A stretch of 46,795 nucleotides of DNA from a virus (lineage: Duplodnaviria > Heunggongvirae > Uroviricota > Caudoviricetes). Positions within the stretch are counted from its first letter, which is position 1, and every line of letters begins with the position of its first letter. The notes beneath the pieces were generated by a model. It was given only the letters and a program-made list of their open reading frames with translations, did no database searches and was not told where the DNA came from. The stretch lies in the IMG/VR virus record IMGVR_UViG_2740892118_000012, positions 1 through 46,795 of that record; one strand, 5' to 3'. Both the position numbers and the translations under genes were made by a program. Below, piece by piece: positions 1 through 46,795 of this stretch.

Positions 1-3000
1 ATGAAAAAAAATTCTTTAAATGTGATTTTGGATACTGTTTTCTCGGCGAAAAGCATCAATGGTGAGAAATCTCATTCTTTTATATCGTATAAATTAGTTA
101 AAGCTGTAGAAAATTTAAGTGGATATGACTTGGATCTTTTCCTCAATCGTGCGATAAACCATCCTAACTTCCCTAGCAATATGGATTTTTCCTTACGAAC
201 AGTTTTTACAATTGAACAATCTAACACTATTGAATTTAAAAATTTCATTTCAGAATTGGTGTGGTACAAGCATATTTTCATACGATATAAAAAACACCTT
301 AATGATATATTATCGGCAAAGGCAAGACTTGAGAAGTTAGTTCTTTTCGCAACAGGTAGTGAATGTATAAAATATTTAGATGAAATAGAAAGCTCTTATG
401 GAGTTAGTTTTTGGAGCATTGATGCTCGTCTCTTAATAAATAAAGTTTTGCTTAACGAAAGCAATGGGTTATATGTTAAATCAATTCTATCTAAAACCCA
501 CTATAAACTTACAGAGTTTATGTTACAGCAGCTATTATTTAAGCATCAAGTACATAACTTTGATGATTTTTCAAAGAACCTTATAAAAATACTAGATGAT
601 ATGCGCACCACTCAAGATAATGGGTATGCTAGAAATTTAGCTGATGGTATTTCATCCTTTTTAATACCTTTAGAGTTTGATAAAAATATAGATCTCAAAA
701 ATAGAACCTTAGCACCATTTACCAACCTTCCTTTAATAGATCAATTTATCATATTCCAGAGAACTATAAGCGATTTACAACTTCATGGAAATGGTTTAAG
801 AAATAGCGAGTTAAGCTTAATTGCAGAAATTAACAGCTTTATTAAAAATAACTATCTCAACAATATTTTAGATGGAAGAGAGCGTAATATAGAGAATATT
901 GATGAACACTATAAAAGTGTTATTCGACGTTATACTATAGGTGATTATACTGGGTGTATTTCAGAAATAAATTCAGTTCGAACGCAGAAGACAATTTTGC
1001 CATTAATTGAAATATATGCAAAATCCCATGTGTATCTTGATAAGAAAATTTCAGACTCATGCATATTCAATAAATTAACAAACTGGCTTATAGCAATTAT
1101 AAAATGCGACAGACGCGCTGGAAAATACATCGATGAATTTGAACTTTTAGCATCTAAGATATATTTCAATTCAAATTCATCCTCTCTATTCTTCACATTA
1201 TATAATTTAATAAGTGATAACCATAATAAATTAAACATATCTCGTATAAATCTAACCAAAAATGGTTCCTTTGTAACATCCCTTCATTTGAATATAACAA
1301 TCAAGGAACTATGGACTGAACTTGGAATAAAAGAGAATGAGATACCAAAATATCGATTATTTAAATTCAAAGACCTAGCAAATCTATCCTTTGATGAAAT
1401 CAAAAAACACTACGAAGTATACAATGATAATGTAATAATTCGCTCTGAATATTTAAAAGATTATACTAACTTTTTATTAGAAAATGAAAAGTATGAATTA
1501 TGCATCCAATTTATAGCTGAAAACTGCATCGGCAACCCCGCAAATTATTACTACTTCCCAATCCGAAAAATAATTGATTTTGTAAAAGACAATATTTTTG
1601 ACTATGCAAGCGTGGCCTTATCTATATTGATAGATATTTTTGTCAAAAGCACATCAAACACTTCAAATGAGCTTCTTCTCGAAAGTTATGAGAGTTTAGT
1701 AGATATTTCAAATATTAATAGGCCATCTACCCATTATTGCTCTAAGCAATTAACTCCATTAGAGCACTATTTCCTTAAGTTTATCTGTATACCTTCCGTG
1801 ATGGATTCAGACCCTTCATTCACAGGCACGGACGACTTGAAGAAGGAAAGAATTGCTATTATAGATCTATTATTAAAAGAACACGATGATGCAGATTTAT
1901 TGAAAGAGAAAGACGAAATTATAGATGAAATATCATTCGAAGAAATAAAAACAAAATATGAGACAGGAAAAATATTTGTTGATATAGAAAATTTAAAACG
2001 GGCAAAGCTTGAAAGATACAGATATTATTTTGATGCACTTAAGGATTCGCTTATTCTCGGACTAGAACCACCTGAAGACTTTGCTTTAATTACAGACGAT
2101 GGGAATATCACAGCCATTCCATCTGGCGATACAAACTCTATAATCCATGAACTTCTAAAAGAACTAATCTCCGATTTTGTTAAAAATGAAAATTACGGTC
2201 TTGATAAATATTTGAGTGCAGATATACGGCATGGTGTTTTTGAAAATCAACTCAGATCAAGTGCTGAAAAATCGCAATTAATAACTGATATGGATGGTAC
2301 TGGACAGTATTCGAAAAGCAATTTAATTATTGAGACATATCCATTAATTAACCCTATTATAAATAACGAAATAGGGACAGCAATAGCTGATTTCTCTTAT
2401 CACTTTGACATTGAATTGGCTAAAGCCAATTCCTGGTTCAATGTCAAGACAATGCTCATAAGTGAATCACAGCAAGGTATGATTGATTTCCTCATTTCTG
2501 TTGATATGTTTAATTCATTTAAAGCAGCAGTTTCAAATCAAGCATCTTTTGAGAAGTTTTTTGACGCTTGTATTAACTTCATGTGGGAAAGAACGTTCAG
2601 ATGTTTGAATGATATTAAAGAGCGATTGCATTACGAATTTAAGAGGAATATTTTAGATTTAATTGCCACTCTTAGGCATCAAATTGATATCTATAGAAGA
2701 CGTAGTTCCATGAGAGAAATCCAGGAGAAAATTGACCTCTTGGCCGAAAGCATTAATAAAGAAATTGCAACAGTCTGCGATTGGTTAAATGTACTTGAGT
2801 ATAACGAGGAGAAAATATATAAAATATCATCCGTGATGCAGGCATGTAGGAAAACTTTTTTTAATATACACCATTGTTCTGATGATGCTATCGTTTTTGA
2901 TTCAATGTATCATGATGATGAACCAAAATTATCTTATAAAGAAGCCAAGCCTCTAATCACATCAATAATAACAGCGTTAAACAATGCTATGGCCTATGGT

Positions 3001-3276
3001 AATAAAAAAATCTTTATCAGTATTAAGCCTGAAGAAAAGTCATGGAAAATAACCATCAGAAATTTGATAATTGAGACAAAGAACAGAACTACCAACCAAA
3101 TTTTACAAGAGATTGATGATAAAATAAAACGAGGGGATAATAGTCTAAATATAAAAGAAGGCGGAGCTGGAATATATAAAATATATGATTTATTATGTTC
3201 ATTACCGCAAAGATTTAATGTGAATCATTGCATCCAAAATAACGAATTCATTTTAAATATTGAGATAAAGAAATGA
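1..3276 (+). CDS. Large sensor-like protein with C-terminal histidine-kinase-type (GHKL) ATPase region; first gene of a Detocs-like three-gene phosphorelay cassette (DtcA-like). ATG at window position 1, so the N-terminus may be truncated by the window edge
   Basis: ORF 1..3276 (1091 aa). C-terminal ~200 aa carry an N-box-like 'ITALNNAMAYGN', a glycine loop 'EGGAGIYKIY' and a candidate H-box 'ATLRHQID'. No Walker A P-loop seen. Stop overlaps next start (ATGA at 3273-3276). Strongly AT-rich. Confidence 0.6.
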   Translation: MKKNSLNVILDTVFSAKSINGEKSHSFISYKLVKAVENLSGYDLDLFLNRAINHPNFPSNMDFSLRTVFTIEQSNTIEFKNFISELVWYKHIFIRYKKHLNDILSAKARLEKLVLFATGSECIKYLDEIESSYGVSFWSIDARLLINKVLLNESNGLYVKSILSKTHYKLTEFMLQQLLFKHQVHNFDDFSKNLIKILDDMRTTQDNGYARNLADGISSFLIPLEFDKNIDLKNRTLAPFTNLPLIDQFIIFQRTISDLQLHGNGLRNSELSLIAEINSFIKNNYLNNILDGRERNIENIDEHYKSVIRRYTIGDYTGCISEINSVRTQKTILPLIEIYAKSHVYLDKKISDSCIFNKLTNWLIAIIKCDRRAGKYIDEFELLASKIYFNSNSSSLFFTLYNLISDNHNKLNISRINLTKNGSFVTSLHLNITIKELWTELGIKENEIPKYRLFKFKDLANLSFDEIKKHYEVYNDNVIIRSEYLKDYTNFLLENEKYELCIQFIAENCIGNPANYYYFPIRKIIDFVKDNIFDYASVALSILIDIFVKSTSNTSNELLLESYESLVDISNINRPSTHYCSKQLTPLEHYFLKFICIPSVMDSDPSFTGTDDLKKERIAIIDLLLKEHDDADLLKEKDEIIDEISFEEIKTKYETGKIFVDIENLKRAKLERYRYYFDALKDSLILGLEPPEDFALITDDGNITAIPSGDTNSIIHELLKELISDFVKNENYGLDKYLSADIRHGVFENQLRSSAEKSQLITDMDGTGQYSKSNLIIETYPLINPIINNEIGTAIADFSYHFDIELAKANSWFNVKTMLISESQQGMIDFLISVDMFNSFKAAVSNQASFEKFFDACINFMWERTFRCLNDIKERLHYEFKRNILDLIATLRHQIDIYRRRSSMREIQEKIDLLAESINKEIATVCDWLNVLEYNEEKIYKISSVMQACRKTFFNIHHCSDDAIVFDSMYHDDEPKLSYKEAKPLITSIITALNNAMAYGNKKIFISIKPEEKSWKITIRNLIIETKNRTTNQILQEIDDKIKRGDNSLNIKEGGAGIYKIYDLLCSLPQRFNVNHCIQNNEFILNIEIKK

Positions 3277-3722
3277 AAATTCTTCTTGTTGAGGATATTG
3301 AATATAAGCGTGATAAGGTGATCGGTTTACTAGAGTCTATTTCTGCCGATGTATCAGTCGATGTAGCTAAATCTTATGTTTCGGCAGTAAATTCCGCAAC
3401 CAGTAAAACTTATGATCTTATAATATTAGATATGAGCCTTCCCACTTACGATAAGGGGCCTAATGAAAATGGAGGTCGCTTCAGAGTGTACGGAGGGAAA
3501 GATATTATTCGCAAGTTAATGAGAGGAAAAGAGCATCCAGTAGTTGTGGTTTTAACACAACATACAACTTTTGGTGAAATTGGTGAGCAAAAAAATACTG
3601 ACACTCTATCACAAGAGTTGAATGCTTTAATGGGATCAAAATTTATAGGTATTGTAAAATATGACTCAACTAAACCTCAATGGAAAGATGAAATAAAAAA
3701 AGTCGTACAGGATTTGTTATGA
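3273..3722 (+). CDS. Stand-alone response-regulator receiver (REC) domain protein (DtcB-like)
   Basis: 149 aa. REC signature: N-terminal 'ILLVEDIE' acidic pocket, 'DLIILDMSLP' with phospho-acceptor Asp, 'VVVLTQ' Thr, downstream Lys. ATGA overlap with both flanking genes. Confidence 0.7.
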   Translation: MKILLVEDIEYKRDKVIGLLESISADVSVDVAKSYVSAVNSATSKTYDLIILDMSLPTYDKGPNENGGRFRVYGGKDIIRKLMRGKEHPVVVVLTQHTTFGEIGEQKNTDTLSQELNALMGSKFIGIVKYDSTKPQWKDEIKKVVQDLL

Positions 3723-4882
3723 TTAAAATATTAATAGTTGATGACAATAAATCTAGAATTGAAAAGCTAAAATCTAGCTTAACTGAACTCATCACAAAAA
3801 ACATGATAAGGATTGATGAGAAATATACAAGTGACGCCGCAAAAATCGCGCTCAAGTTAAATCAATATGATTATTTAATTCTTGATGTCTTTTTACCTAA
3901 AAAAGATAACTATAGCCCAGATGAAAGAAATGGATTAGGTCTTTTAAAACAAATAAATTCAGATTCTAAATTTTACTCTCCAAAAAAAATAGTTGGCATA
4001 ACTGCATATCTGAATGATATATCCAGATATGAATCCGAATTCAGAGAATATGCTTCAATTATATTCGAGGCTCGACGTAATGATACTGGATGGCTTGAAT
4101 CACTCAAAAAAATCATTGAAAAGGATGTTGAATCTCAAGTAAGTTATAATCTCAATGAAAAAGATAGTGTTTTAATAACAGTACACGGTATAAGAACCTA
4201 CGCACCTTGGCAAAATACCATAGAAGAAAAAATAACCAATATATCAAATAAATTTAACTATATAAAATTCAATTATGGTTTTCTAAATATTCTTTGTTTT
4301 TTATTCCCTCCGACTAGACATCTATTTGCAAGAAAAATAATCCAAGACATACGAATTACAGTGGAATCAAATAAGAATAAAAGAATTTATATTATTTGTC
4401 ATAGTTTTGGTACCTACCTTGTATATTGTGCCTTAAGTAAACTGACACATACGGATGCAAAAATTGAATGTTTAATTTTTTCTGGTAGCGTATTAAAACG
4501 TACTACCTCATTGAAAACATTAAAGCAACATTGTAATGCAATAATAAATGACTGTGCTGTAAGTGATTATATTTTATTACTATGTAAAATGTTAGTCATT
4601 GGCTTGGGCGATGCAGGCAGAAAAGGGTTTATTGAGCCAAATGATGGTGTTTTCATTAACCGCTATTTTAAAGGAGGACATTCAACTTACTTCGAAGATA
4701 AAGATTTCATAGAAGTGAACTGGCTTCCTTTAATTTTTGACAATAAAAATATCGCGTCACGAGATGAAAGAAAAAATCATATTTTTTCCGATGTCACCAA
4801 TGCTTTGCAAAATATAATTGAATATTTAAAAATACCAATATGGTTATTTTTTTCTTTTTTATTGATAGCACTGGTATTATAA
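3719..4882 (+). CDS. Receiver (REC) domain fused to alpha/beta-hydrolase-like (serine esterase/lipase-type) domain with C-terminal hydrophobic anchor; putative effector (DtcC-like with non-PNP effector)
   Basis: 387 aa. N-terminal REC ('ILIVDDNK', 'DYLILDVFLP', 'IVGITAY'). C-terminal part has 'LITVHGIRT' (oxyanion-hole HG), 'IICHSFGT' (nucleophile elbow x-H-S-x-G), 'DAG' and 'GGHST' (candidate acid/His), ending in hydrophobic 'IPIWLFFSFLLIALVL'. Confidence 0.65.
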   Translation: MIKILIVDDNKSRIEKLKSSLTELITKNMIRIDEKYTSDAAKIALKLNQYDYLILDVFLPKKDNYSPDERNGLGLLKQINSDSKFYSPKKIVGITAYLNDISRYESEFREYASIIFEARRNDTGWLESLKKIIEKDVESQVSYNLNEKDSVLITVHGIRTYAPWQNTIEEKITNISNKFNYIKFNYGFLNILCFLFPPTRHLFARKIIQDIRITVESNKNKRIYIICHSFGTYLVYCALSKLTHTDAKIECLIFSGSVLKRTTSLKTLKQHCNAIINDCAVSDYILLLCKMLVIGLGDAGRKGFIEPNDGVFINRYFKGGHSTYFEDKDFIEVNWLPLIFDNKNIASRDERKNHIFSDVTNALQNIIEYLKIPIWLFFSFLLIALVL

Positions 4883-4905
4883 TATCACTGCACATTAAAA
4901 ATCAT

Positions 4906-4933
4906 ATTGGAGCTTCCCTCATAAAGCTCCAAT
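4906..4933 (+). terminator. Perfect 10-bp inverted repeat hairpin (ATTGGAGCTT-N8-AAGCTCCAAT) downstream of the cassette; possible terminator or protein-binding site
   Basis: Seen directly; lies 24 nt after the stop at 4882 in a convergent AT-rich intergenic region; no clean U-run follows. Confidence 0.3.
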
Positions 4934-5361
4934 ATAAAACACCATCATTTCAATAGTACCTGCAGCTAATTAAAACTAGTCAACCGAAAACATTAATCAC
5001 TTTAAACTTTAGTATGCACTTATACTTTCTTAATAATAGAAAAACACTTACAAATAAATTAATCATGTCAATCTCCGTAACTACAACCTCGGAAAGTATG
5101 TAAACAGGAATCATTACTGAAAAAAACACGATTTCAGCAGAATTCTAGAAATATCCTGTGCTGCTGCCGATACCAACTTTCGTATATACTACCCTTCACG
5201 TTCCTTCTCGTTTTTATAAAACTATTCATTTATAACTATCAATAGGCATCATAACCAATGTAAGTGTAAGTACTGGTGAACGAGTGTCAATGGAGTTAAA
5301 AGTATCACTTCATCCTGCTAAATATAAGTTATCCTACGTTTTAATATACTAGAACTCAAAA

Positions 5362-6327
5362 TTAGAATGGTTTGTTAATATTAATAGATTTACCATTGAT
5401 ATCTTTTGACACCTTAAAAAAATCTATACCTTTTATCCACTGACATAACTGTTGTAGTGTTTCCATTGCCTGTTCTAACTCATTTTTTTCAATTCTAACG
5501 CCCCCATGATGGCTACAGGAATTTAATAATTCCTGAGCTAGAGTGATGTCATTCTTCAGCTTATTAGGCAGACCGAGAAAATTAATCACCCTCGACAAAC
5601 TCCCAAGCATTAACTTTTGATAGTCTTCTTCAAATTCCTTTTCAGCCCTAATATTTACTAACATCAAAACATACTCAAGATAACGCCGTGCTGTATTTCC
5701 CTTTTCTTGTAACGCATCTCTATCATACTCTTTAATATCACTCAATTCCTGTAGTAGAAAATCAAACTTAGCTATTGCCAAGTTAAGATTGATGTTATGC
5801 ATTAGCAATTCGGATGCATGATTGCTAACAGGTACACGATTTGGTGGACGTATCATTATAGCCGTCGTGTAACAATTTATATTTGGTATCTGTATAAATT
5901 CCTCACCGGAACGCGTAACACGTTGAACTTCTACCATATAGTGGCCAAATTTATCAATCTCATATGACCGACAACGAGCAGAATATAATTTATTTAGCTT
6001 TTTCCTGTCTTGATAATATGATTTTATTAATACAAAAAATGCTCTTTCGTGCTCAATAATTAAAATAGTCTCTATTGAAGCATGGTACAACCATCCGTTA
6101 TTCCATGTTAATTCAAGCTGTCTATTTCCATCTTTAAAATCAATTTTAGTTATACGATCCCAACTTCCTCTATCAATAAAATCGACAATATTGCGCCCAA
6201 ATCCTTGATAGTTATTTTTAACAATGTGCAATAGTACTGCCTTTATTTTATCCCAATCATGAATTTCTTTTTCATATTCACCATTTAATATATTCGTTAA
6301 ATCACTGTGAAAATTTTCATATGTCAT
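5362..6327 (-). CDS. Hypothetical protein (321 aa), AT-rich island cargo adjacent to integrase; no recognised domain
   Basis: ORF with ATG start at 6327; AT-rich codon usage like the cassette; convergent with the cassette and co-directional with the integrase. Confidence 0.55.
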   Translation of the reverse strand: MTYENFHSDLTNILNGEYEKEIHDWDKIKAVLLHIVKNNYQGFGRNIVDFIDRGSWDRITKIDFKDGNRQLELTWNNGWLYHASIETILIIEHERAFFVLIKSYYQDRKKLNKLYSARCRSYEIDKFGHYMVEVQRVTRSGEEFIQIPNINCYTTAIMIRPPNRVPVSNHASELLMHNINLNLAIAKFDFLLQELSDIKEYDRDALQEKGNTARRYLEYVLMLVNIRAEKEFEEDYQKLMLGSLSRVINFLGLPNKLKNDITLAQELLNSCSHHGGVRIEKNELEQAMETLQQLCQWIKGIDFFKVSKDINGKSININKPF

Positions 6328-6428: not shown

Positions 6429-7613
6429 TCAATTGACATCATTACCAATTCTTCCAATGCAATCAGCATACCACTGCATCATCTCCCTCCGCCCTTCCAG
6501 ATACAAAGCATGGTTGTACGTCCCACGAATCGCATTCTTATCGACATGCGCAAGCTGGGTTTCAATCCATGCCGTATTGAACCCTTCCTCGTGCAAAATC
6601 GTACTCATCGTGTGACGGAAACCATGCCCCGTTACCTTCCCCGTATACCCAATCCGTTTGAATACCTGATTCATACTCGCTTCACTCATCGTCTTGCGGG
6701 GATCATTTCGCCCTGGGAATACCAGTGGATATTGCCCAGATATCACCTTGAGTTGTTGTACGATTTCCAGCGCTTGGGTAGATAGGGGGACAAGGTGAGG
6801 CCGTTTCATCTTCATACGCTCTGCAGGTATTTCCCACACTGCTTTTTCAAGATCAAACTCACTCCAGAAAGCACCTCGTAGCTCGCCAGTACGAACTCCT
6901 GTAAGGATCAGCAGACGAGCGGCAAGAACAACTAACGGGCTTCCTGTGTAGCCTGCGAGAGCTTTAAAGAAGTCTGGTAACTCCTCAACAGTAAGGAAGG
7001 GATAATGCTTCGATTCATGCCCTGACATTGCGCTGGTTAGATCCGCTGCAGGATTGTATTCCGCACGACCGGTAACGATGGCGTAACGAAAGACTTCACT
7101 GCAACGCTGGCGAACCTTCTTGGCCTTCTCTGTCGCGCCACGGCTTTCCATTCGACGTAGCACATTCAGCAGAACCAAAGGCTTGATGTCATTCACCGGC
7201 AGTTGGCCAATATAAGGGAAAATATCTTTATTGAAGGCTTCGATAATGTCGGAGGCATAACCTTCTGACCACCGGCTCACCTTCGTTCCGTGCCATTCAA
7301 GTGCCACAGCCTGAAACGTATTATTGAGCTGCACATCGCGAACCAACTTTTCTTCTTTCTTGGCAAACGATGGGTCGATACCTTCGGCCAGCTTTTTCTT
7401 GGCTTCATCACGCAGTGCCCTCGCTTGTGCAAGGGACACTGCCGGATAGACACCAAAAGCCATACGTTTCTCTTTTCCATTGAAGCGATATTTCATCCGC
7501 CAGTATCGAGAACCAGAAGGAACAACTTCAAGATACAAGCCTGCACCATCTGCTAGCTTGTAGGCTTTCTCTCTGGGTTTAGCAGCATCTACCTGTCGAG
7601 CATTAAGCTTCAT
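6429..7613 (-). CDS. int: P4-type tyrosine integrase (site-specific recombinase)
   Basis: N-terminal 'GLYLEVVPSGSRYWRMKYRFNGKEKRMAFGVYPAVSLAQAR' (P4-int N-terminal domain); C-terminal catalytic 'HGFRHT' and 'RGTYNHALY'. ORF track starts at a GTG at 7652; ATG at 7613 has RBS AGGGAG ~9 nt upstream (ATG at 7622 also possible). Confidence 0.9.
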   Translation of the reverse strand: MKLNARQVDAAKPREKAYKLADGAGLYLEVVPSGSRYWRMKYRFNGKEKRMAFGVYPAVSLAQARALRDEAKKKLAEGIDPSFAKKEEKLVRDVQLNNTFQAVALEWHGTKVSRWSEGYASDIIEAFNKDIFPYIGQLPVNDIKPLVLLNVLRRMESRGATEKAKKVRQRCSEVFRYAIVTGRAEYNPAADLTSAMSGHESKHYPFLTVEELPDFFKALAGYTGSPLVVLAARLLILTGVRTGELRGAFWSEFDLEKAVWEIPAERMKMKRPHLVPLSTQALEIVQQLKVISGQYPLVFPGRNDPRKTMSEASMNQVFKRIGYTGKVTGHGFRHTMSTILHEEGFNTAWIETQLAHVDKNAIRGTYNHALYLEGRREMMQWYADCIGRIGNDVN

Positions 7614-7776
7614 TGGGGGCATCTCCCTGGACCGAACACAGAATGCCCCCACTTATGCCCCCAACTGCGACTTGATTTCGGTTGAGTCCAGTTGATAACA
7701 GGAGATAAGATACGGGCCAGAAACCGCAGTATACGGGCTTTTAGTTGATTTCGGTAGACTTGGGAAGAGTTTGAAA

Positions 7777-7822
7777 TGGTGCCGATAATAGGAGTCGAAC
7801 CTACGACCTTCGCATTACGAAT
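7777..7822 (-). tRNA. Partial tRNA-Thr (anticodon CGU, thrW-like) 3' fragment of 46 nt, anticodon loop to CCA end; not an intact tRNA gene; attachment-site core repeat
   Basis: Reverse complement reads TTCGTAATGCGAAGGTCGTAGGTTCGACTCCTATTATCGGCACCA (anticodon loop, T-arm GGTTCGACTCC, CCA end). Identity to the recalled tRNA-Thr sequence stops 5' of this; flanked by phage DNA on one side. Confidence 0.75.
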
Positions 7823-8053
7823 CTGTAGCACCAATCATAACTATCTGTTTTAGCAAGCATTAACCGCATTCACCAAGCAATAGTTGATGGCACAAACAGA
7901 AAGTTGATGCATGATGTTGTCATGTGTATGTCACAAATACGGCACAACGATCTTCAAACATGTAGCCACTCAGCATAGAAGAGCACAAAGCCTTGCAATC
8001 CAGTGCAAAGCTTTGTGTGTCTCAGTTTTGTTTCATCGGTAATTATGTGTTCG

Positions 8054-8353
8054 CTACGATGCAAGAATCCATACCAATAAGCATCCGATAATTGGGAAAG
8101 AAAAATCCAACAGACTTCCCACATCCCACACGCGTGGATCAAAACCTCCCCACCACGGCATGTTGATGCGTTTCCCTTTCCCAAACTTTTCTATCCAGCG
8201 ATATTCTGCCTGGGTGTGTTCACGCGCAATGAAGAACGTACAACCGGCTATCGCACCGTAAGCCCAGTTTCCGGTAGAAAGGCCAACCAGTACCTGAGCC
8301 GCAAAAGCGCAAAGCGAGTGAAGAAATGGAGTGACATCAATGCTCTTAATCAT
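8054..8353 (-). CDS. Small hypothetical membrane protein (about 3 hydrophobic segments) immediately downstream of tailspike
   Basis: 99-aa ORF, start overlapping tailspike stop; hydrophobic stretches '[12 protein letters not shown]', '[13 protein letters not shown]', '[14 protein letters not shown]'. Confidence 0.35.
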
Positions 8354-10407
8354 GAAACTTCCCCATTGGTTGAAAATATGGCTCCTCCAACGCCAAGTGT
8401 ATTTCGTGTTGCGCTCAACCTCAGAGGGCTGGAGTCAGAATTAGAATATCCTGTAGCAGAAATAAAAGATCCTCCACTAATAGTCAACTGCGGAACATCG
8501 GCTATATCTGAATAAGTTCTGTCAGCAACAGTATTATTTATAGCCACATGTGATCCAAAAAAACTTCTTATTGTTTGGTTTTTAACTTTACTTCCTTCAA
8601 TGGTTATCCTACTACCACAGTCGGCAATAAATCCTGAATCTGCATCCAGCGTTGCATTCATAAAAGAAGCTTCAGATCTCTCTACATCAATCCATCTAAT
8701 ATCTTTTGTGGGATTTGCACCAAATACATGACAAATATTAGAGTTAAACCTTACACCATCTTGGAGGTGCATTAATTTTTTTATATCTGTACCCCATAGC
8801 CTTGGAAAATTAACAGATGCTCCTGCATGGCAATCAAATCCCAGCTCAACCCCTGAGATATCTACAGCCTTTCCGGAAATAACAGCACCAGTGTCTGCAT
8901 TAACGGCTGTTCCACAATTGCGCATATCATTACCAGCAACATCAACACAACCCGCACCATCAATACGCACACCAAGTGCACATCCATAAAAACCTTTTTC
9001 AATATTTGGTTCAAGGACTTTACCACTTGTTTCTGCATCACTTTCTTCAACGTCATGTCGTCTTGCATCAACATATGCTGTATGAATGCACGTTAATCCA
9101 CGATATGAGCAATGTATAGTTTTATGGTCGCGTATATTAACATTTGAACCATCTCTTACATTCCATCCTATATAACAATAGCTTGCACTTGACCCCTGAA
9201 AATCTGCTTTAACATTATAAATACAATTAACTGACGCAACCGTACTCTCTGTGCACCGTTCAAACTTACTTACAGGCATTGATGCCTTGACATTATTTAC
9301 CAGTTGCAGGGAAGAGTATCTGCTATAAGAAAAATCACATACGTAATACCCTTCTGGCATATATGCAGCAACACTTTCCTCATCAGGAGCACATCCGGTA
9401 TGATATGCACTAATTTTTGCACCAAAACTACCATGAATTCCAACGTAGAACTTTCGAGCACCTGAATACGGATAGAAATTAAGTTCAGCTTTTTGAGTTA
9501 CAATAAATGCACAAACATCGCTATCATCTCTATTTTCTTCAATCTGAATAGCAAATACAGGACTTTTTGCTGCATCGCAAATGTAAAATAAATATTTGTA
9601 TTCGTAATACGTCCTAACAGTTTTAGTAAACAAACTGGTATCAGAGAAAACCACTGAGTCTTCTGATATTATTTTAATCCATGATAAGTCACATCCTGCT
9701 GAAATTTCTATTTGCTCATTGAGCACAAAACCGGAAAGAATTTTAATTATGCAAAAATCAATGCCATTTTTCCATAGTGGACGCAGTGCAACAGCTGAGT
9801 TCAGAGCATCACTAATAGATTTAAAATTACCATATTCCCCAACTGTTATTGTGAATGCATACCTGGAATTAAATACTGCGGCACTCTCTCCAGAGTTAAT
9901 AGCTGCAGATATCATGTCATAATTTGATATAAAATCATTTGGCGTGATTATTTCTGCGTTTTTATTGTGCTGTGTTCTAAGTTTTGAATTTACATGAACA
10001 CTTTTAACTGCAATACGGGAGTCGTCAACAAGTATTTCATTACCCTCTGTTGCTAACTCTTGTCTTAACTGATCCGGATCATACTTCAGCACATTCGGAA
10101 AATAGAACTGCTGCACACCGTACGCATCATAAACAGCCATCGAATGGCCTTGCACGGTAACGAATTTGGCAATCTGTCCGTTATATACCGGATATCCAGC
10201 AGCGTTAATGATGATTGGCTGTGCAACAGGAACGTGAGAACCATCTTCGTTCTCAACATAGACCTGAATCTGGTTTTCTGGATTTACCGGGTCAGTGTCA
10301 ATTTTACCGATATAAATTTTGCCATTGGCTACGGCTTTAAAAGAACGAGCCATAGTGAAGAGTTGCGAAGGCATGCTCACTACAACATTGGCTGTAATGT
10401 CTGTCAT
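8350..10407 (-). CDS. Tailspike protein (P22 gene 9-type N-terminal head-binding domain, divergent receptor-binding domain)
   Basis: N-terminal ~110 aa '[13 protein letters not shown]...[21 protein letters not shown]...NVLKYDPDQ' closely matches recalled P22 tailspike N-terminus; the remaining ~570 aa do not. Confidence 0.85.
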
Positions 10408-10477
10408 TTAATTTGCTCCAGATACAAGGAATCGCCGCAGCATTGCCGCAGTGATGCATTATTAATCAAAAAAATAC

Positions 10478-10490
10478 GACCACCGTGGTC
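10478..10490. promoter_or_regulatory. Perfect palindrome GACCACCGTGGTC; candidate Mnt-type operator between mnt and tailspike
   Basis: Seen in sequence in the 148-bp mnt-tailspike intergenic region; resembles the recalled P22 Omnt GTGG/CCAC-core palindrome. Confidence 0.4.
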
Positions 10491-10554
10491 TTATTGAGGA
10501 TGCAATCAGCAGATAATAAGATGCCGATCCACTCACAAAAGCGAGGCATCAAGA

Positions 10555-10806
10555 ATGGGAAGAGATGACCCGCAATTTAATCTGCGGCTACCTTACGAAT
10601 TAAAGGAAAAACTAAAACAGCGAGCCAAATCCAATGGCCGCTCTCTTAATTCAGAATTAGTTCAGATAGTGACTGATGCTGTATCAAAGCCATCCAAAAT
10701 TTCAGGCTATCGAGACGATGCGGAACGCATCGCTGATGAGCAGTCAGAGCTTGTTAAGAAGATGGTGTTTGATACGCTGAATGATTTGTACAAAAAACCC
10801 ACCTGA
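10555..10806 (+). CDS. mnt: Mnt repressor (ribbon-helix-helix, Arc/MetJ family)
   Basis: 83 aa 'MGRDDPQFNLRLPYELKEKLKQRAKSNGRSLNSELVQIV...DDAERIADEQSELVKKMVFDTLNDLYKK' matches recalled P22 Mnt along its length. Confidence 0.85.
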   Translation: MGRDDPQFNLRLPYELKEKLKQRAKSNGRSLNSELVQIVTDAVSKPSKISGYRDDAERIADEQSELVKKMVFDTLNDLYKKPT

Positions 10807-10905
10807 AGGTGGGTTAATTTTTGCATTTACCTGGGCCATATTGACTACTTATAAAATGAGATCAATATTTAATCGCCCAATAACGGGTGTATGTTGAGGT
10901 ATATC

Positions 10906-11085
10906 ATGGCGAAAAAACCAGGTGAAAACACAGGAAAAAACGGCGGAATATACCAAGAAGTTGGCCCACGCGGCGGTAAGAAAGACAATTTTGCAACCGT
11001 CAAGGACAACGAAAGGCTTCCACCAACAACAAAGCCAGGTCATGGCTGGGTATTGGATAAGCGAACTCCAGACAGCAAAAAGTAA
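10906..11085 (+). CDS. Small hypothetical protein (59 aa), Gly/Lys-rich
   Basis: ATG at 10906 preceded by GAGGT with 5-nt spacing; followed by a terminator hairpin. Confidence 0.4.
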   Translation: MAKKPGENTGKNGGIYQEVGPRGGKKDNFATVKDNERLPPTTKPGHGWVLDKRTPDSKK

Positions 11086-11091
11086 TAATCA

Positions 11092-11113
11092 AGCCGGGTC
11101 ACTCCGGCTTTTT
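11092..11113 (+). terminator. Rho-independent terminator (AGCCGGgtcacTCCGGCT + TTTTT)
   Basis: GC-rich stem-loop followed by T-run, directly after the small ORF stop. Confidence 0.5.
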
Positions 11114-11464
11114 GATATGTCGCTCGCAGAACTCAACAAGCCTGCTCATTAAGTAGCAGTAAGTCTCGTTGGCTCTTCCTGGTTCAACATCAACACCTAC
11201 CCTTGAGCAGATATCGAATGCCATGTGAGCGCACTCATGGGCAATAGTAGATAGTTTGCCATTGAACACGCCTATCACATGCAAAACACCATTCTCGCTA
11301 CTCATTGTATGAGACGCTCCGTTGGCGTCCGAGTCATGCACGTCAACGCCAAGTTTTTGATGCAGGCGTTGCCATTCTGGAAAGTCTCTACAAAACACAA
11401 TTGTACCGCTCTCAAAGAGCGGAACGAGCATCTTTGGTACGTTTCCAATGTTAACTTTTTTCAT
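11099..11464 (-). CDS. Small hypothetical protein with HExxH motif ('IAHECAHMAF'); possible zinc-metallopeptidase-like moron
   Basis: 121-aa ORF; HExxH seen directly; no further homology recognised. Confidence 0.45.
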   Translation of the reverse strand: MKKVNIGNVPKMLVPLFESGTIVFCRDFPEWQRLHQKLGVDVHDSDANGASHTMSSENGVLHVIGVFNGKLSTIAHECAHMAFDICSRVGVDVEPGRANETYCYLMSRLVEFCERHIKKPE

Positions 11465-11498
11465 GGTATCCTGCGCAAAACTAAGGAGAGTTAATTAT

Positions 11499-11984
11499 AT
11501 GAAAAAATCACTGTTAATTATCCCGCTTCTGCTGGCTGGGTGCGCAAAAGTAAGCGACTATCAGGCAAGTTGCGAGCAACGCTATCCAAAGCTTAGCGAT
11601 ATGGCTAATTGCCTTGATGCCAGCTTGAAGAACGACTCTCGCATGGCATCAGCACCAACACCTAAGCTGTATGTCCTTGCTGCGAAGATGCTCGGGCAAG
11701 GTGTCGATGAAGGCAAGATAAGTGACACACAGGCAAGACTTGAACTTCAGAATCTTTATGTTCAATTACAAAGCCAAGAACAAGCACAACAAATAGCACA
11801 AAGCCAAGCATTCCAGCAGGCTTTATTGAATTATCAGGCTGTAAACACAATGCAAGCGATCGAGCAAAAAGCGCGCCAGCCTGTTATAACTCAACCTTAC
11901 CCAACACGCGTTGACACATATACAAACTGCAATTCAGGATTTGGAAACACGGTAACATGCAACAGTAGCAGTAATATCAGATAG
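11499..11984 (+). CDS. Lipoprotein (signal peptide with lipobox LLAGC), Gln-rich; prophage moron in the sieA/immI-equivalent position
   Basis: ATG at 11499 with RBS AAGGAGAG; N-terminus 'MKKSLLIIPLLLAGCAK'; ORF track begins upstream at 11448. Confidence 0.6.
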   Translation: MKKSLLIIPLLLAGCAKVSDYQASCEQRYPKLSDMANCLDASLKNDSRMASAPTPKLYVLAAKMLGQGVDEGKISDTQARLELQNLYVQLQSQEQAQQIAQSQAFQQALLNYQAVNTMQAIEQKARQPVITQPYPTRVDTYTNCNSGFGNTVTCNSSSNIR

Positions 11985-11997
11985 TTATATCTTATTT

Positions 11998-13845
11998 TTA
12001 TTGCTGTTCTGCTGTAATTTGGCTTGAAAGTATAGGGCGTATCGCATTTGCAGCATTATTTAGCGCTCTTTCATAGGCTGGTGTTCCTGCTTTGGTGTTT
12101 GCCAAACGTAAGAGAGCATTCCTTGCTGCTTTTGACTCATACAAGCGCATCATTGCACCGAAACCAGCCTCAAGCCCCATTGATACGCCAAGAGTCGCAG
12201 TTGCGCCAATCGTCCTTATCCTGTTGGCTTGCGATTGCCCCGTCTGAGTTACTACATTTGCGGTGTCTGACCTTGCTGTTTGCTGTAGAACTTCATGAAG
12301 AGAATCAAGCTCTTTCATGTGCTTTCCAGAAAAAATAGTGTTGTAAATTTCACCGCCTGACTGAGATTTCAGCTTATTAACTTCAGTGATGAACTTGGCT
12401 GGAGAGTCACCGGCCTTTTCCGCTATTTTGCTGACATAAGCTGCACGCATAGCATCTTTCCCTTTATTATCCAATGCGCTCCAGATTCGTTTCACGTCAG
12501 ATGGTTTTCTGCTTAATACAACGGTATTTATAAGTTCAGGACTGGCTTCACTGCTTGCCTTGTTGAGCTTGTTAGCAATGTTTTTATTAAGCACCTTATT
12601 ATAAACGTTTGCATAATCGGAATTTGCTTTAAGGTATTTTGCTGCGTCTGATGCACCGAGGTTTTTTGCAACTGCGTTACGAAGATCTTTTGACATTGCA
12701 TTCTCTACCATATTGGTAGCTGCTTTTGCCTGGTTTGGGAAGACCATAGCATCTCCCTGAACATTAGATCTAAATGCTGTTCTGTGCTGACGCAAGAGAT
12801 CAAACGTAACATCCAAATCAGTTGCAGGGTTTGCTAATTCTTCACGTAGGTTACGCAAGGATGTAAGCAGGCTTTGATTGGCAGACGTCCCAAGCCGTTC
12901 CTGTCTTGCGATCGCTGTATTCAGAGCATTCATGGTATTTGTGGTATCAACTGCGGCATTACCCATTTTATTGGTGACGTCATTGATAACAGCGCCAGCG
13001 GCATCCTTCCGCCCCCTTAACGTGGTGGTAAGAGATTTCACCACATCATCAGGGTTGTACTCACCAAAACGGTCAAAATAATTACTTACCAGCTTACTAC
13101 GCGTTGCATATTGCTCCGCTCGCTTTGAGCCTGTCCCGAGCAAAGCCCCCTCGGCATCCTGAGTTAGGCCGCGAGTGAAAGCATTTTTCGGCGGGATAAC
13201 ATCAGATGTCATTGGTGTCACGCCCATCGATTCTGATGTGGCAATTTTCTTCGCCACTTCTGGCGCAATATCACCTTTTATAGCCGTTATTCCACGCCCT
13301 ATTCCCTTTGCTGCTGCGGAAAGAACCCCCTGAGCGGCAAGGTTAACTCCGGCATTTTTAGCTGCATTTTGTGCGAAATCGCCTTTCTGATTTGCGGCCT
13401 CTGCCAGTGATCCAATAGCCATGCTTCCTGCCGTTCCAACTCCTGGAACTAAATACCCGCCAATTGTTTCTCCAGCTTGCGCATAAGGGTCTGTTGGTCG
13501 ATCGACTGGACGATAGACATCGTCCAAAACCTTGGGGCCACCAAGCCCCTGGCTGATTGCATTAATCAGACTTGCGCCGCCCTGCAATACGTCAAATGGT
13601 ATGTTTACCAGACCACGACCAGCCTGTTCCGCAATTTGCCCTGCACTTTGACCACCAGTGAGCCAATCGCCAGCTTGTTGCATCAATGATGGTTCTTCCC
13701 GTGTTGGTGCATTATTGGCCTGATTAACTGTTTGTTGCTGAACAGCCTGACCAGCAAAATACTCATCAATGGCGGTGCCAATATCTTCGGTGCTCGTACC
13801 ATCAGGAAAGGTAAATGTCTTACCGTTTGCAGTTACTTTCATCAT
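11998..13845 (-). CDS. Ejection/DNA-injection protein (P22 gp16-like)
   Basis: 615 aa at the position and size of P22 gene 16, last gene of the 4-10-26-14-7-20-16 block; stop/start overlap with gp20. Confidence 0.7.
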
Positions 13846-45410: not shown

Positions 45411-45758
45411 GTGGAAGAAGAAATCTTCACTCGTGAAGAGGCGGCGTCGTATCTGAAGGTAGACAAAGGCACTATCACGCAGTGGATACGAAGTGGACGA
45501 CTTCAGGCCGCAAAGATAAATCCAGATAAACCTAAAAGCCCATATCGCATTTGCAAGTCAGACTGCATTGCGGCGCTTAAGTCTGTGAGACACAATAGCG
45601 CGGTGAATGCGGTTGATGTGCAGGAGGTTAAAGCATGTCAATCAAACTACGCGGTGGCACGTGGCACTGCGATTTCGTCGCGCCAGATGGATCAAGAGTT
45701 AGACGCTCTCTTGAAACATCGGACAAAAGGCAAGCGCAAGAACTTCACGATCGTCTGA
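45411..45758 (+). CDS. xis: Excisionase (HTH DNA-binding, Xis)
   Basis: 'TREEAASYLKVDKGTITQWIRSGRLQAAK' HTH; immediately upstream of and overlapping int, as in lambda/P22. The 3' end in the overlap is uncertain. Confidence 0.6.
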   Translation: MEEEIFTREEAASYLKVDKGTITQWIRSGRLQAAKINPDKPKSPYRICKSDCIAALKSVRHNSAVNAVDVQEVKACQSNYAVARGTAISSRQMDQELDALLKHRTKGKRKNFTIV

Positions 45759-46795
45759 AAGCAGAAGCGTGGAGAGTAAAAAATCTCGGGGAATCACCGA
45801 AAAAGCTATTCAAGGAAGCCTGCATACGGTGGCTTCGTGAGAAATCGGATAAGAAGTCCATTGATGATGACAAGAGCATTATATCGTTCTGGATGTTGCA
45901 CTTCAGAGAAACCATTCTCTCAGACATAACAACAGAAAAAATAATGGAGGCGGTAGACGGGATGGGAAACCGCCGCCATCGCCTGAACTGGGAAATGAGC
46001 CGGGACAGGTGTTTGCGACTTGGTAAGCCAGTGCCGGAGTATAAACCAAAGCTGGCAAGCAAAGGAACGAAGACGCGGCATCTGGCAATACTTCGCGCTA
46101 TTCTCAATATGGCTGTTGAATGGGGATGGCTTGACAGGGCGCCCAAAATATCAACACCACGCGTTAAGAATGGACGAATCAGATGGCTTACAGAGGAGGA
46201 ATCGAAGCGCCTGTTTGCAGAAATTGCTCCTCATTTCTTCCCTGTGGTCATGTTTGCAATCACGACAGGCCTTCGCCGTTCCAACGTTACAGACCTTGAG
46301 TGGTCACAGGTAGATCTGGATAAGAAAATGGCATGGATGCACCCTGATGAAACAAAAGCTGGCAATGCGATCGGAGTTCCTCTTAACGAAACCGCATGCC
46401 AGATATTAAGAAAACAGCAGGGTCTCCATAAGAGATGGGTGTTTGTCCACACCAAACCTGCCTACCGAAGCGACGGAACAAAAACAGCAGCGGTAAGGAA
46501 GATGAGAACCGACAGCAACAAGGCATGGAAGGGAGCGTTAAAGCGGGCAGGCATTAGCAACTTCCGCTTCCATGACCTGAGGCATACCTGGGCAAGCTGG
46601 CTGGTTCAGTCCGGTGTCTCTCTTCTTGCACTTAAAGAGATGGGAGGATGGGAAACTCTCGAAATGGTTCAAAGATACGCCCACCTTTCAGCCGGGCATC
46701 TCACCGAGCACGCGAGCAAAATCGATGCGATTATAAGTCGCAATGGCACAAATACGGCACAAGAGGAGAACGTAGTTTACTTAAATGTGAGGTAA
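45635..46795 (+). CDS. int: Tyrosine integrase (P22 Int-like, lambda integrase family)
   Basis: 386 aa; '...KRQAQELHDRLKAEAWRV...KSIDDDKSII...RRHRLNW...FRFHDLRHTWASWLVQSGVSLLALKEMGGWETLEMVQRYAHLSAGHLTEHA' matches recalled P22 Int with catalytic R, H-x-x-R and Y; stop at window end. Confidence 0.9.
   Translation: MSIKLRGGTWHCDFVAPDGSRVRRSLETSDKRQAQELHDRLKAEAWRVKNLGESPKKLFKEACIRWLREKSDKKSIDDDKSIISFWMLHFRETILSDITTEKIMEAVDGMGNRRHRLNWEMSRDRCLRLGKPVPEYKPKLASKGTKTRHLAILRAILNMAVEWGWLDRAPKISTPRVKNGRIRWLTEEESKRLFAEIAPHFFPVVMFAITTGLRRSNVTDLEWSQVDLDKKMAWMHPDETKAGNAIGVPLNETACQILRKQQGLHKRWVFVHTKPAYRSDGTKTAAVRKMRTDSNKAWKGALKRAGISNFRFHDLRHTWASWLVQSGVSLLALKEMGGWETLEMVQRYAHLSAGHLTEHASKIDAIISRNGTNTAQEENVVYLNVR

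Follow-up and report, generated by a model that had tools for sequence, protein, structure and literature searches.

A predicted Detocs operon with a receiver-hydrolase effector in an integrase island at the thrW site of Escherichia coli

The window is a stretch of 46,795 nucleotides, covering positions 1 to 46,795 of the IMG/VR virus record IMGVR_UViG_2740892118_000012, and its first 4.9 kb carry a cassette of three genes, dtcA, dtcB and dtcC. They encode a predicted cytoplasmic sensor histidine kinase, a stand-alone receiver, and a receiver fused to a putative serine hydrolase with a hydrophobic C-terminal segment. Hidden Markov model (HMM), pairwise, profile-profile and fold comparisons place the cassette in the family of the defensive two-component systems (Detocs), where it is a divergent member of a published and experimentally validated subtype, labelled 'Hydrolase + TM' (hydrolase and transmembrane); its novelty is low. 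It is highly probable that the cassette is a Detocs operon of this subtype, carried as cargo of an integrase island at thrW, and that it acts by the phosphorelay mechanism described below. An earlier reading of the same DNA (the original prediction) had recognised the order of sensor kinase, buffer receiver and receiver-effector as that of Detocs, and PADLOC, BLASTP, hhalign and fold searches all agree with it.

In the published survey of Detocs, about 80% of the operons have a PNP ATP-nucleosidase effector, and a minority have other effectors (Rousset et al. 2023, bioRxiv 10.1101/2023.01.24.525353). In the PNP-type system, mutants of the DtcA His (H645) and of the DtcC Asp lose defence, and the mutant of the DtcB Asp is toxic. 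The hydrolase-TM Detocs of Enterobacter cloacae JD6301 gives broad protection against diverse phages (Table S1 and Fig. S8C of the same study). The 'Hydrolase + TM' class in Table S5 comprises about 35 systems, including those of E. coli WCE035, O76 and G177, and of Klebsiella quasipneumoniae FI_HV_2014. A K. quasipneumoniae protein that is 98% identical to DtcC of the window exists. The original prediction held the hydrolase variant to be uncharacterised, and said that its claim would fall if the genes matched a system with this effector that had been annotated before. Table S1 and Table S5 show such a match, since one hydrolase-TM system has been tested and the class is catalogued, and the claim of novelty fails. 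A search of the literature collection available for Detocs-hydrolase and for DtcA, DtcB and DtcC found no later mechanistic work.

The PADLOC library assigns the three proteins to one family. DtcA matches PDC-M60A (4.5e-55), DtcB matches PDC-M60B (2e-35), and DtcC matches PDC-M60C (1e-22). The last match comprises the receiver only (aa 2-149, model positions 1-147 of 407), and DtcC has no Pfam PNP_UDP_1 match, so that it lies outside the PNP subtype. As controls, proteins from the two Detocs systems with experimental validation (Table S1; Vibrio alginolyticus and E. cloacae) were compared with the library, and these too match PDC-M60A, PDC-M60B and PDC-M60C. DtcC of V. alginolyticus covers PDC-M60C over its full length (1-404, 1.4e-64), whereas DtcC of E. 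cloacae matches it in the receiver only, like DtcC of the window. Because the validated proteins match PDC-M60 and no model named Detocs appeared, PDC-M60 is the Detocs family in this library. The name 'PDC-M60' itself was found in one survey paper only.

Pairwise comparison with E. cloacae JD6301 gives 32% identity for DtcC (1-373 on 1-371, E 4e-55) and 32% for DtcB over its full length (E 2e-18), both by BLASTP. DtcB is also homologous to its counterpart in V. alginolyticus (E 1e-7). The N-terminus of JD6301 DtcA is barely detectable with DtcA of the window in pairwise BLAST (E 1e-3). A profile of 62 DtcA family sequences, in contrast, aligns co-linearly with the N-terminus of E. cloacae DtcA (hhalign probability 98.5%, E 1.7e-15). 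The same profile aligns with the C-terminal half of a PNP-type (V. alginolyticus-type) DtcA, which contains the phospho-acceptor His and the ATP-binding domain (CA; 97.5%, E 7e-12). For the validated DtcAs, the sequences in the supplement stop at residue 400; this C-terminal half comes from a metagenome contig (locus L007) in which dtcA is split by a frameshift. A two-sequence profile of those truncated N-termini retrieved fragments only. The cassette thus has a dtcA-dtcB-dtcC operon, a DtcA with TPR-like repeats and a kinase core, a receiver DtcB, a receiver-effector DtcC, and homology of all three proteins to Detocs. For the 'Hydrolase + TM' subtype, it has a hydrolase fold with a putative triad and a hydrophobic C-terminal segment.

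Comparison with named systems shows how far the resemblance goes. E. cloacae JD6301 has the same gene order and nearly the same protein lengths (DtcB of 150 against 149 aa, DtcC of 386 against 387 aa). Its DtcC likewise has a receiver, an alpha/beta hydrolase and a C-terminal helix annotated 'TM', is alignable end to end, and has in common with DtcC of the window the HSFG elbow and the motifs GLG(D/N)AGR(K/N)GF and GGHS. The two systems differ in the level of identity of DtcC and DtcB, in the diverged DtcA sensor, and in the thrW island that houses the window cassette. The PNP-type system of V. alginolyticus UCD-32C has the same three-component logic, and the 'RxIRHG' motif, N-box and G-box of DtcA are conserved. 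Its effector, in contrast, is an ATP nucleosidase of the PNP type, which drains the cell of ATP and dATP. Since a predicted membrane-anchored serine hydrolase replaces the PNP domain in the window, the killing chemistry must differ.

A third comparison is the Detocs of the yjcB-ssb island of E. coli (ISME J 2024, PMC11728103; loci L003-L005), with a DtcA of 1102 aa in the Y4jQ family, a receiver of 152 aa, and a receiver-hydrolase of 390 aa. Its DtcA aligns with DtcA of the window over residues 100-1098 and 89-1087, respectively (E 1e-46). The system differs in its chromosomal site and in its DtcC, which is 34% identical. According to the same publication, one isolate has a further Detocs at another site, which is divergent and may be of the same lineage as the window cassette (PMC11728103).

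DtcA is a protein of 1091 aa from a large family. A word-indexed search found only 2 homologous proteins, and an exhaustive search of representatives was needed, which gives 1498 homologues at E≤1e-3 among 50% representatives. NCBIfam and PHROGs give nothing useful, and phmmer against PDB sequences gives nothing. No 17-residue hydropathy window exceeds the threshold, except for one borderline window at 532. The AlphaFold 2 model (mean predicted local distance difference test score, pLDDT, 86.6) comprises four parts. Residues 1-655 are helical throughout, 660-845 form a mixed module with H744 in it, 850-928 a long helical hairpin, and 939-1090 an alpha/beta domain. In a Foldseek search of PDB, nearly all of the top 50 matches are DHp and CA cores of histidine kinases (probability 1.00, 220-260 aligned columns), including AdeS, an EnvZ chimera, CpxA, YycG, ZraS, CusS, HK853 and KinB. 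The family profile also has weak matches to the ThkA catalytic domain (E 0.013), YycG (0.14) and the TPR repeat protein 2kck (E 0.043). Residues 1-655 are co-linear with the region marked 'TPRs' in the validated E. cloacae DtcA.

The motifs of DtcA point in the same direction. D247, Y311, R617, R743, H744, W928, N995, N1021, G1057 and K1060 are invariant in the 62 aligned homologues, and E1053, G1054 and G1055 are nearly so. The N-box is 'NNAMAYG' (N995), and the G-box extends from E1053 to G1057 within the glycine loop 'EGGAGIYK'; these are the signatures that the original prediction had picked out. Fold and motifs together support a histidine kinase, even though the Pfam HisKA and HATPase_c models fail. 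DtcA resembles kinases of the EnvZ, CpxA and HK853 type in its DHp-like hairpin, its Bergerat fold, its N-box Asn and its conserved G2-box glycines. It differs from them in lacking a transmembrane sensor and a DNA-binding output, and in having a helical-repeat N-terminus of about 650 aa.

The phospho-acceptor His of DtcA has to be reassigned. The original prediction had proposed H893 in 'LRHQ', which is conserved in 0 of 61 homologues; the residue there is S, E, N, D, L or T instead. H744 in 'DIRHG' is the sole conserved His of the family and is found in all 62 sequences. It aligns with the His of 'RRIRHG' in the V. alginolyticus-type DtcA of L007. When the two parts of that protein are put together again, this His is close to residue 644 and coincides with the published H645. 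H744 is thus the predicted phospho-acceptor.

DtcB and DtcC both contain receivers. DtcB matches Pfam Response_reg above the cut-off (3.1e-8), and its D8, K12, D53, T95 and W137 are invariant in seven DtcBs, both validated ones included. DtcC matches Response_reg at 2.7e-5 and alpha/beta-hydrolase families (DUF900, Lipase_3 and DUF676) below threshold. It was aligned with 41 full-length homologues (31-63% identity), which come from Vibrio, Pseudomonas, Yersinia, Pantoea and Serratia, among others. The conserved receiver residues of DtcC are D8, D9, D56 and T95. Shortly after the phospho-Asp, position 61 is Lys or Arg in 40 of the 42 sequences. At the beta5-lysine site, 27 of the 42 sequences have Glu (residue 117 of DtcC, window 4067-4069), and the motif in DtcB is [FY]-D ('VKYD', window about 3645-3660).

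The effector part of DtcC conserves H156-G157, H228-S229-x-G231, D283 and H321. By alignment, these residues correspond to what a serine hydrolase needs, namely an oxyanion-hole motif, a nucleophile elbow and an acid-base pair, and S229, D283 and H321 are invariant. The structural model comprises a receiver, a lid-less alpha/beta hydrolase and a C-terminal helix at 355-386. Kyte-Doolittle windows of 17 residues reach 2.0-2.3 at 369-371, and 35 of 42 homologues likewise end in a hydrophobic segment. At the level of sequence, the best hints point to lipases, namely Lipase_3, DUF676, LIDHydrolase, Tle3 and the putative lipase 7x2p. Structure prediction and fold search, suggested with the original prediction, thus bear out both its kinase core in gene 1 and its receiver and hydrolase with a hydrophobic C-terminus in gene 3.

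The proposed mechanism is a phosphorelay that would end in membrane damage. The helical repeats of the cytoplasmic DtcA would detect a phage-derived cue, and the C-terminal GHKL ATP-binding domain would phosphorylate H744. The phosphoryl group would then pass to D56 in the DtcC receiver and switch on the fused hydrolase with its S229-D283-H321 triad. Because DtcA and the receivers are predicted to be cytoplasmic, the hydrolase must sit on the cytoplasmic side of the inner membrane, where the C-terminal tail anchor would keep it. Cleavage of ester bonds in membrane lipids would damage the membrane and lead to abortive infection, in which the cell would not support phage growth. D53 of DtcB would compete for the phosphoryl group and soak up leaky kinase activity, and would so prevent self-killing. 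The phosphorelay steps are modelled on the PNP-type mutants and the defence phenotype on the E. cloacae hydrolase system; the lipid substrate, the DtcC topology and the infection trigger are inferred.

Membrane lipids are the most likely substrate of DtcC. Inner-leaflet phospholipid would be the most economical choice, because DtcC appears to be tail-anchored on the cytoplasmic side. A less probable reading, which still deserves a place beside it, is that the Detocs assignment holds and the hydrolase, once phosphorylated, acts on another ester, a thioester or an amide, for example in lipid-linked precursors of the cell wall, in acyl carriers or in components of the phage, or that it works mainly by oligomerising and perturbing the membrane. 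Against this reading, the predicted tail anchor is conserved across the family and the sequence hints are lipase-like. The invariant triad argues for catalysis and against a purely structural role.

The genomic setting is that of a defence island, judged by its gene content as a mobile island with an integrase, a toxin-antitoxin pair and antirestriction genes. The three genes are contiguous, co-directional, intact and translationally coupled, and neighbouring genes overlap by 4-nt ATGA start/stop sequences at 3273-3276 and 3719-3722, as the original prediction had described. Reading frames of such lengths in DNA of about 30% GC are real and not due to chance. GC content is 0.29-0.34 across positions 1-5000 and about 0.50 farther along the window. 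The AT-rich island beside a P4-type integrase and next to a prophage is found as foreseen. The tRNA site is correct as to the locus, thrW, but an intact tRNA is not present: ARAGORN found none in the window, and Rfam at its own thresholds found no tRNA remnant. Insertion of the P22-like prophage has left no more of thrW than 46 nt at its 3' end. The one tRNA site is common to two mobile elements, the island with its integrase and the prophage.

The DNA of the window is E. coli chromosome. Among 5426 complete E. coli genomes, the 4.9-kb cassette is rare: 17 have it, always on the chromosome and at an identity of at least 99.9%, and it is on no plasmid in the plasmid collection searched. The exact proteins are found on about 570-800 public contigs, mostly from E. 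coli but also from Klebsiella. In E. coli SMS-3-5 (NC_010498.1, cassette at 309610-314491), the island is flanked by yagU and by tRNA-Thr (thrW, beside proA), which is the position of CP4-6 in K-12. Its first part comprises a CbtA/YeeU toxin-antitoxin pair, DUF987, JAB and antirestriction genes, and a DUF905 pseudogene. These are followed by an IS3 element, dtcABC, a hypothetical gene of 321 aa on the opposite strand, and the integrase. The IS3-family transposase (10359-11536 of locus L001) separates the cassette from the CP4-6-like genes (antirestriction, JAB, DUF987 and CbtA/YeeU).

The three-gene architecture also recurs in other islands. The metagenome contig Ga0308165_1001377 (locus L002) contains a copy of the whole cassette at 8001-12885 that is 63% identical. 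Its mobile context differs, with genes for a relaxase, a restriction endonuclease of the Mrr type and a different integrase. Such a copy would be expected if the cassette moves horizontally from one defence island to another.

The window begins with the dtcA ATG at position 1, and the native dtcA promoter therefore lies outside 1-4882 and not inside it, as the original prediction had assumed. In all inspected carriers, the IS3-family transposase lies 465 bp upstream of dtcA. The intervening gap has just two promoter-like sites (9/12 matches), with no excess over shuffled sequences. These data, and the DUF905 pseudogene in the same island, would suit an inactive or silenced remnant, for instance one with a promoter broken by IS3, that hitch-hikes on the island. 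Such a remnant is improbable, as all three reading frames are intact and nearly identical in the 17 complete genomes, the exact proteins are widespread, and the catalytic and phospho-acceptor residues are all retained.

A number of observations weigh against the Detocs reading or against parts of it. The activity of this allele is predicted by analogy, and its DtcC is just 32% identical to the tested DtcC. DtcA is only 23% identical to the other E. coli DtcA, of the yjcB-ssb island. The IS3 element might influence the expression or promoter of dtcA. No Pfam model, HisKA and HATPase_c included, matches DtcA at E≤1, so that the Pfam matches expected in the original prediction are present in genes 2 and 3 (Response_reg) and absent from gene 1. 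The nearest folds to the DtcC model are generic small esterases, lipases and carboxylesterases of 11-13% identity. The hydrophobic tail of DtcC is short, at about 16-19 residues, and the beta5 lysine that is canonical in CheY-like receivers is missing from those of Detocs.

The layout of the kinase is a further point on this side. In textbook kinases, the phospho-acceptor His precedes the N-box by about 105-115 residues, as in EnvZ (H243/N347). DtcA has no conserved His about 110 residues before its N-box; H744 lies 251 residues from N995, about twice that distance, and the hairpin adjoining the ATP-binding domain contains no conserved His. The phosphotransfer geometry is unclear for these two reasons. 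DtcA may have a CheA-like separation of phospho-acceptor and dimerisation modules. On a more tentative note, the cassette could represent a functionally distinct branch, with a diverged sensor (23-30% identity to other DtcAs) that responds to another cue, a phosphorylation-gated, tail-anchored phospholipase, and a CheA-like kinase with a remote phospho-His; this is possible but doubtful. Gating of this kind is not known to have been described biochemically for an immune effector that degrades lipids.

The Detocs reading is set last against a non-immune two-component pathway with an enzymatic output, of CheB-like layout, that would remodel the membrane or serve the island when an environmental signal arrives. 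Receiver-enzyme fusions are known in housekeeping signalling, and the RefSeq labels of dtcA, dtcB and dtcC are generic ('hypothetical protein', 'response regulator' and 'alpha/beta hydrolase'), but DtcC has no CheB_methylest domain after its receiver, the CheB-like and housekeeping readings were rejected, and a non-immune role is very improbable. The original prediction had also set housekeeping signalling aside, correctly in its conclusion, although its argument from a missing DNA-binding domain is weak by itself. Homology to validated systems, island location, rarity and perfect conservation together make the housekeeping and remnant readings unlikely.

The remaining features lie downstream of dtcC (Table 1). 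The hairpin found by the terminator scan has its T-run on the minus strand only, which gives a terminator score for the opposite strand, and the nearest minus-strand gene ends 425 nt from it. It is possibly the end of the plus-strand operon transcript, a role that is uncertain. The ORF (open reading frame) of 321 aa has no Pfam, NCBIfam or PADLOC match and a weak match to phrog_622 only (E 0.002). As a fourth component of the system it was rejected, because it is absent beside the homologous Detocs loci L002-L005; it is probably independent island cargo.

Table 1. Coordinates of the Detocs cassette and neighbouring features in the window.
Feature	Position	Strand	Remarks
dtcA	1-3276	+	1091 aa; predicted cytoplasmic sensor histidine kinase; PF27260 'Y4jQ' precomputed on homologues; PADLOC PDC-M60A
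dtcA N-terminal all-helical repeats, TPR-like solenoid	1-1965	+	aa 1-655; presumed phage sensor; AlphaFold 2 model
dtcA H744 codon	2230-2232	+	motif 'SADIRHG'; predicted phospho-acceptor His; conserved 62/62
dtcA C-terminal kinase core	2548-3270	+	hairpin aa 850-928 and Bergerat-fold ATP-binding domain aa 939-1090
dtcA N995 codon	2983-2985	+	N-box
dtcB	3273-3722	+	149 aa; stand-alone receiver; proposed phosphate sink
dtcB D53 codon	3429-3431	+	predicted phospho-acceptor
dtcC	3719-4882	+	387 aa; receiver, alpha/beta hydrolase and C-terminal hydrophobic helix
dtcC receiver domain	3719-4159	+	aa 1-147; predicted phospho-acceptor D56, codon 3884-3886
dtcC alpha/beta-hydrolase effector domain	4160-4738	+	aa ~148-340; oxyanion H156-G157
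dtcC S229 codon	4403-4405	+	putative triad; HSFG nucleophile
dtcC D283 codon	4565-4567	+	putative triad
dtcC H321 codon	4679-4681	+	putative triad
dtcC C-terminal hydrophobic helix	4823-4879	+	aa 369-387 'IPIWLFFSFLLIALVL'; predicted membrane tail anchor
Hairpin	4902-4937	.	near-perfect 15-bp stem; 20 nt past dtcC stop; terminator scan
Hypothetical ORF between dtcC and integrase	5362-6327	-	321 aa; AT-rich
P4-type tyrosine integrase	6429-7652	-	domains Arm-DNA-bind_3, Phage_int_M, Phage_integrase
thrW (tRNA-Thr) 3' remnant	7777-7822	-	46 nt; assigned from SMS-3-5 annotation
P22-like prophage	7823-46795		IME10-like, ~96% identity; inserted in thrW
ORF closing the window	45635-46795		386 aa

With this assignment, genes carried by E. 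coli SMS-3-5 and by hundreds of other enterobacterial contigs can be correctly labelled by function as a Detocs of the hydrolase-TM subtype. It also corrects the residues of functional interest, which are H744 and not H893 in DtcA, D53 in DtcB, and D56, S229, D283 and H321 in DtcC. After the 2023 publication, the discovery itself is incremental, and the remaining interest lies in the biochemistry of the hydrolase and in the unusual layout of the kinase. For both the hydrolase substrate and the unusual placement of the DtcA His, this allele, native to E. coli, would be a convenient model.

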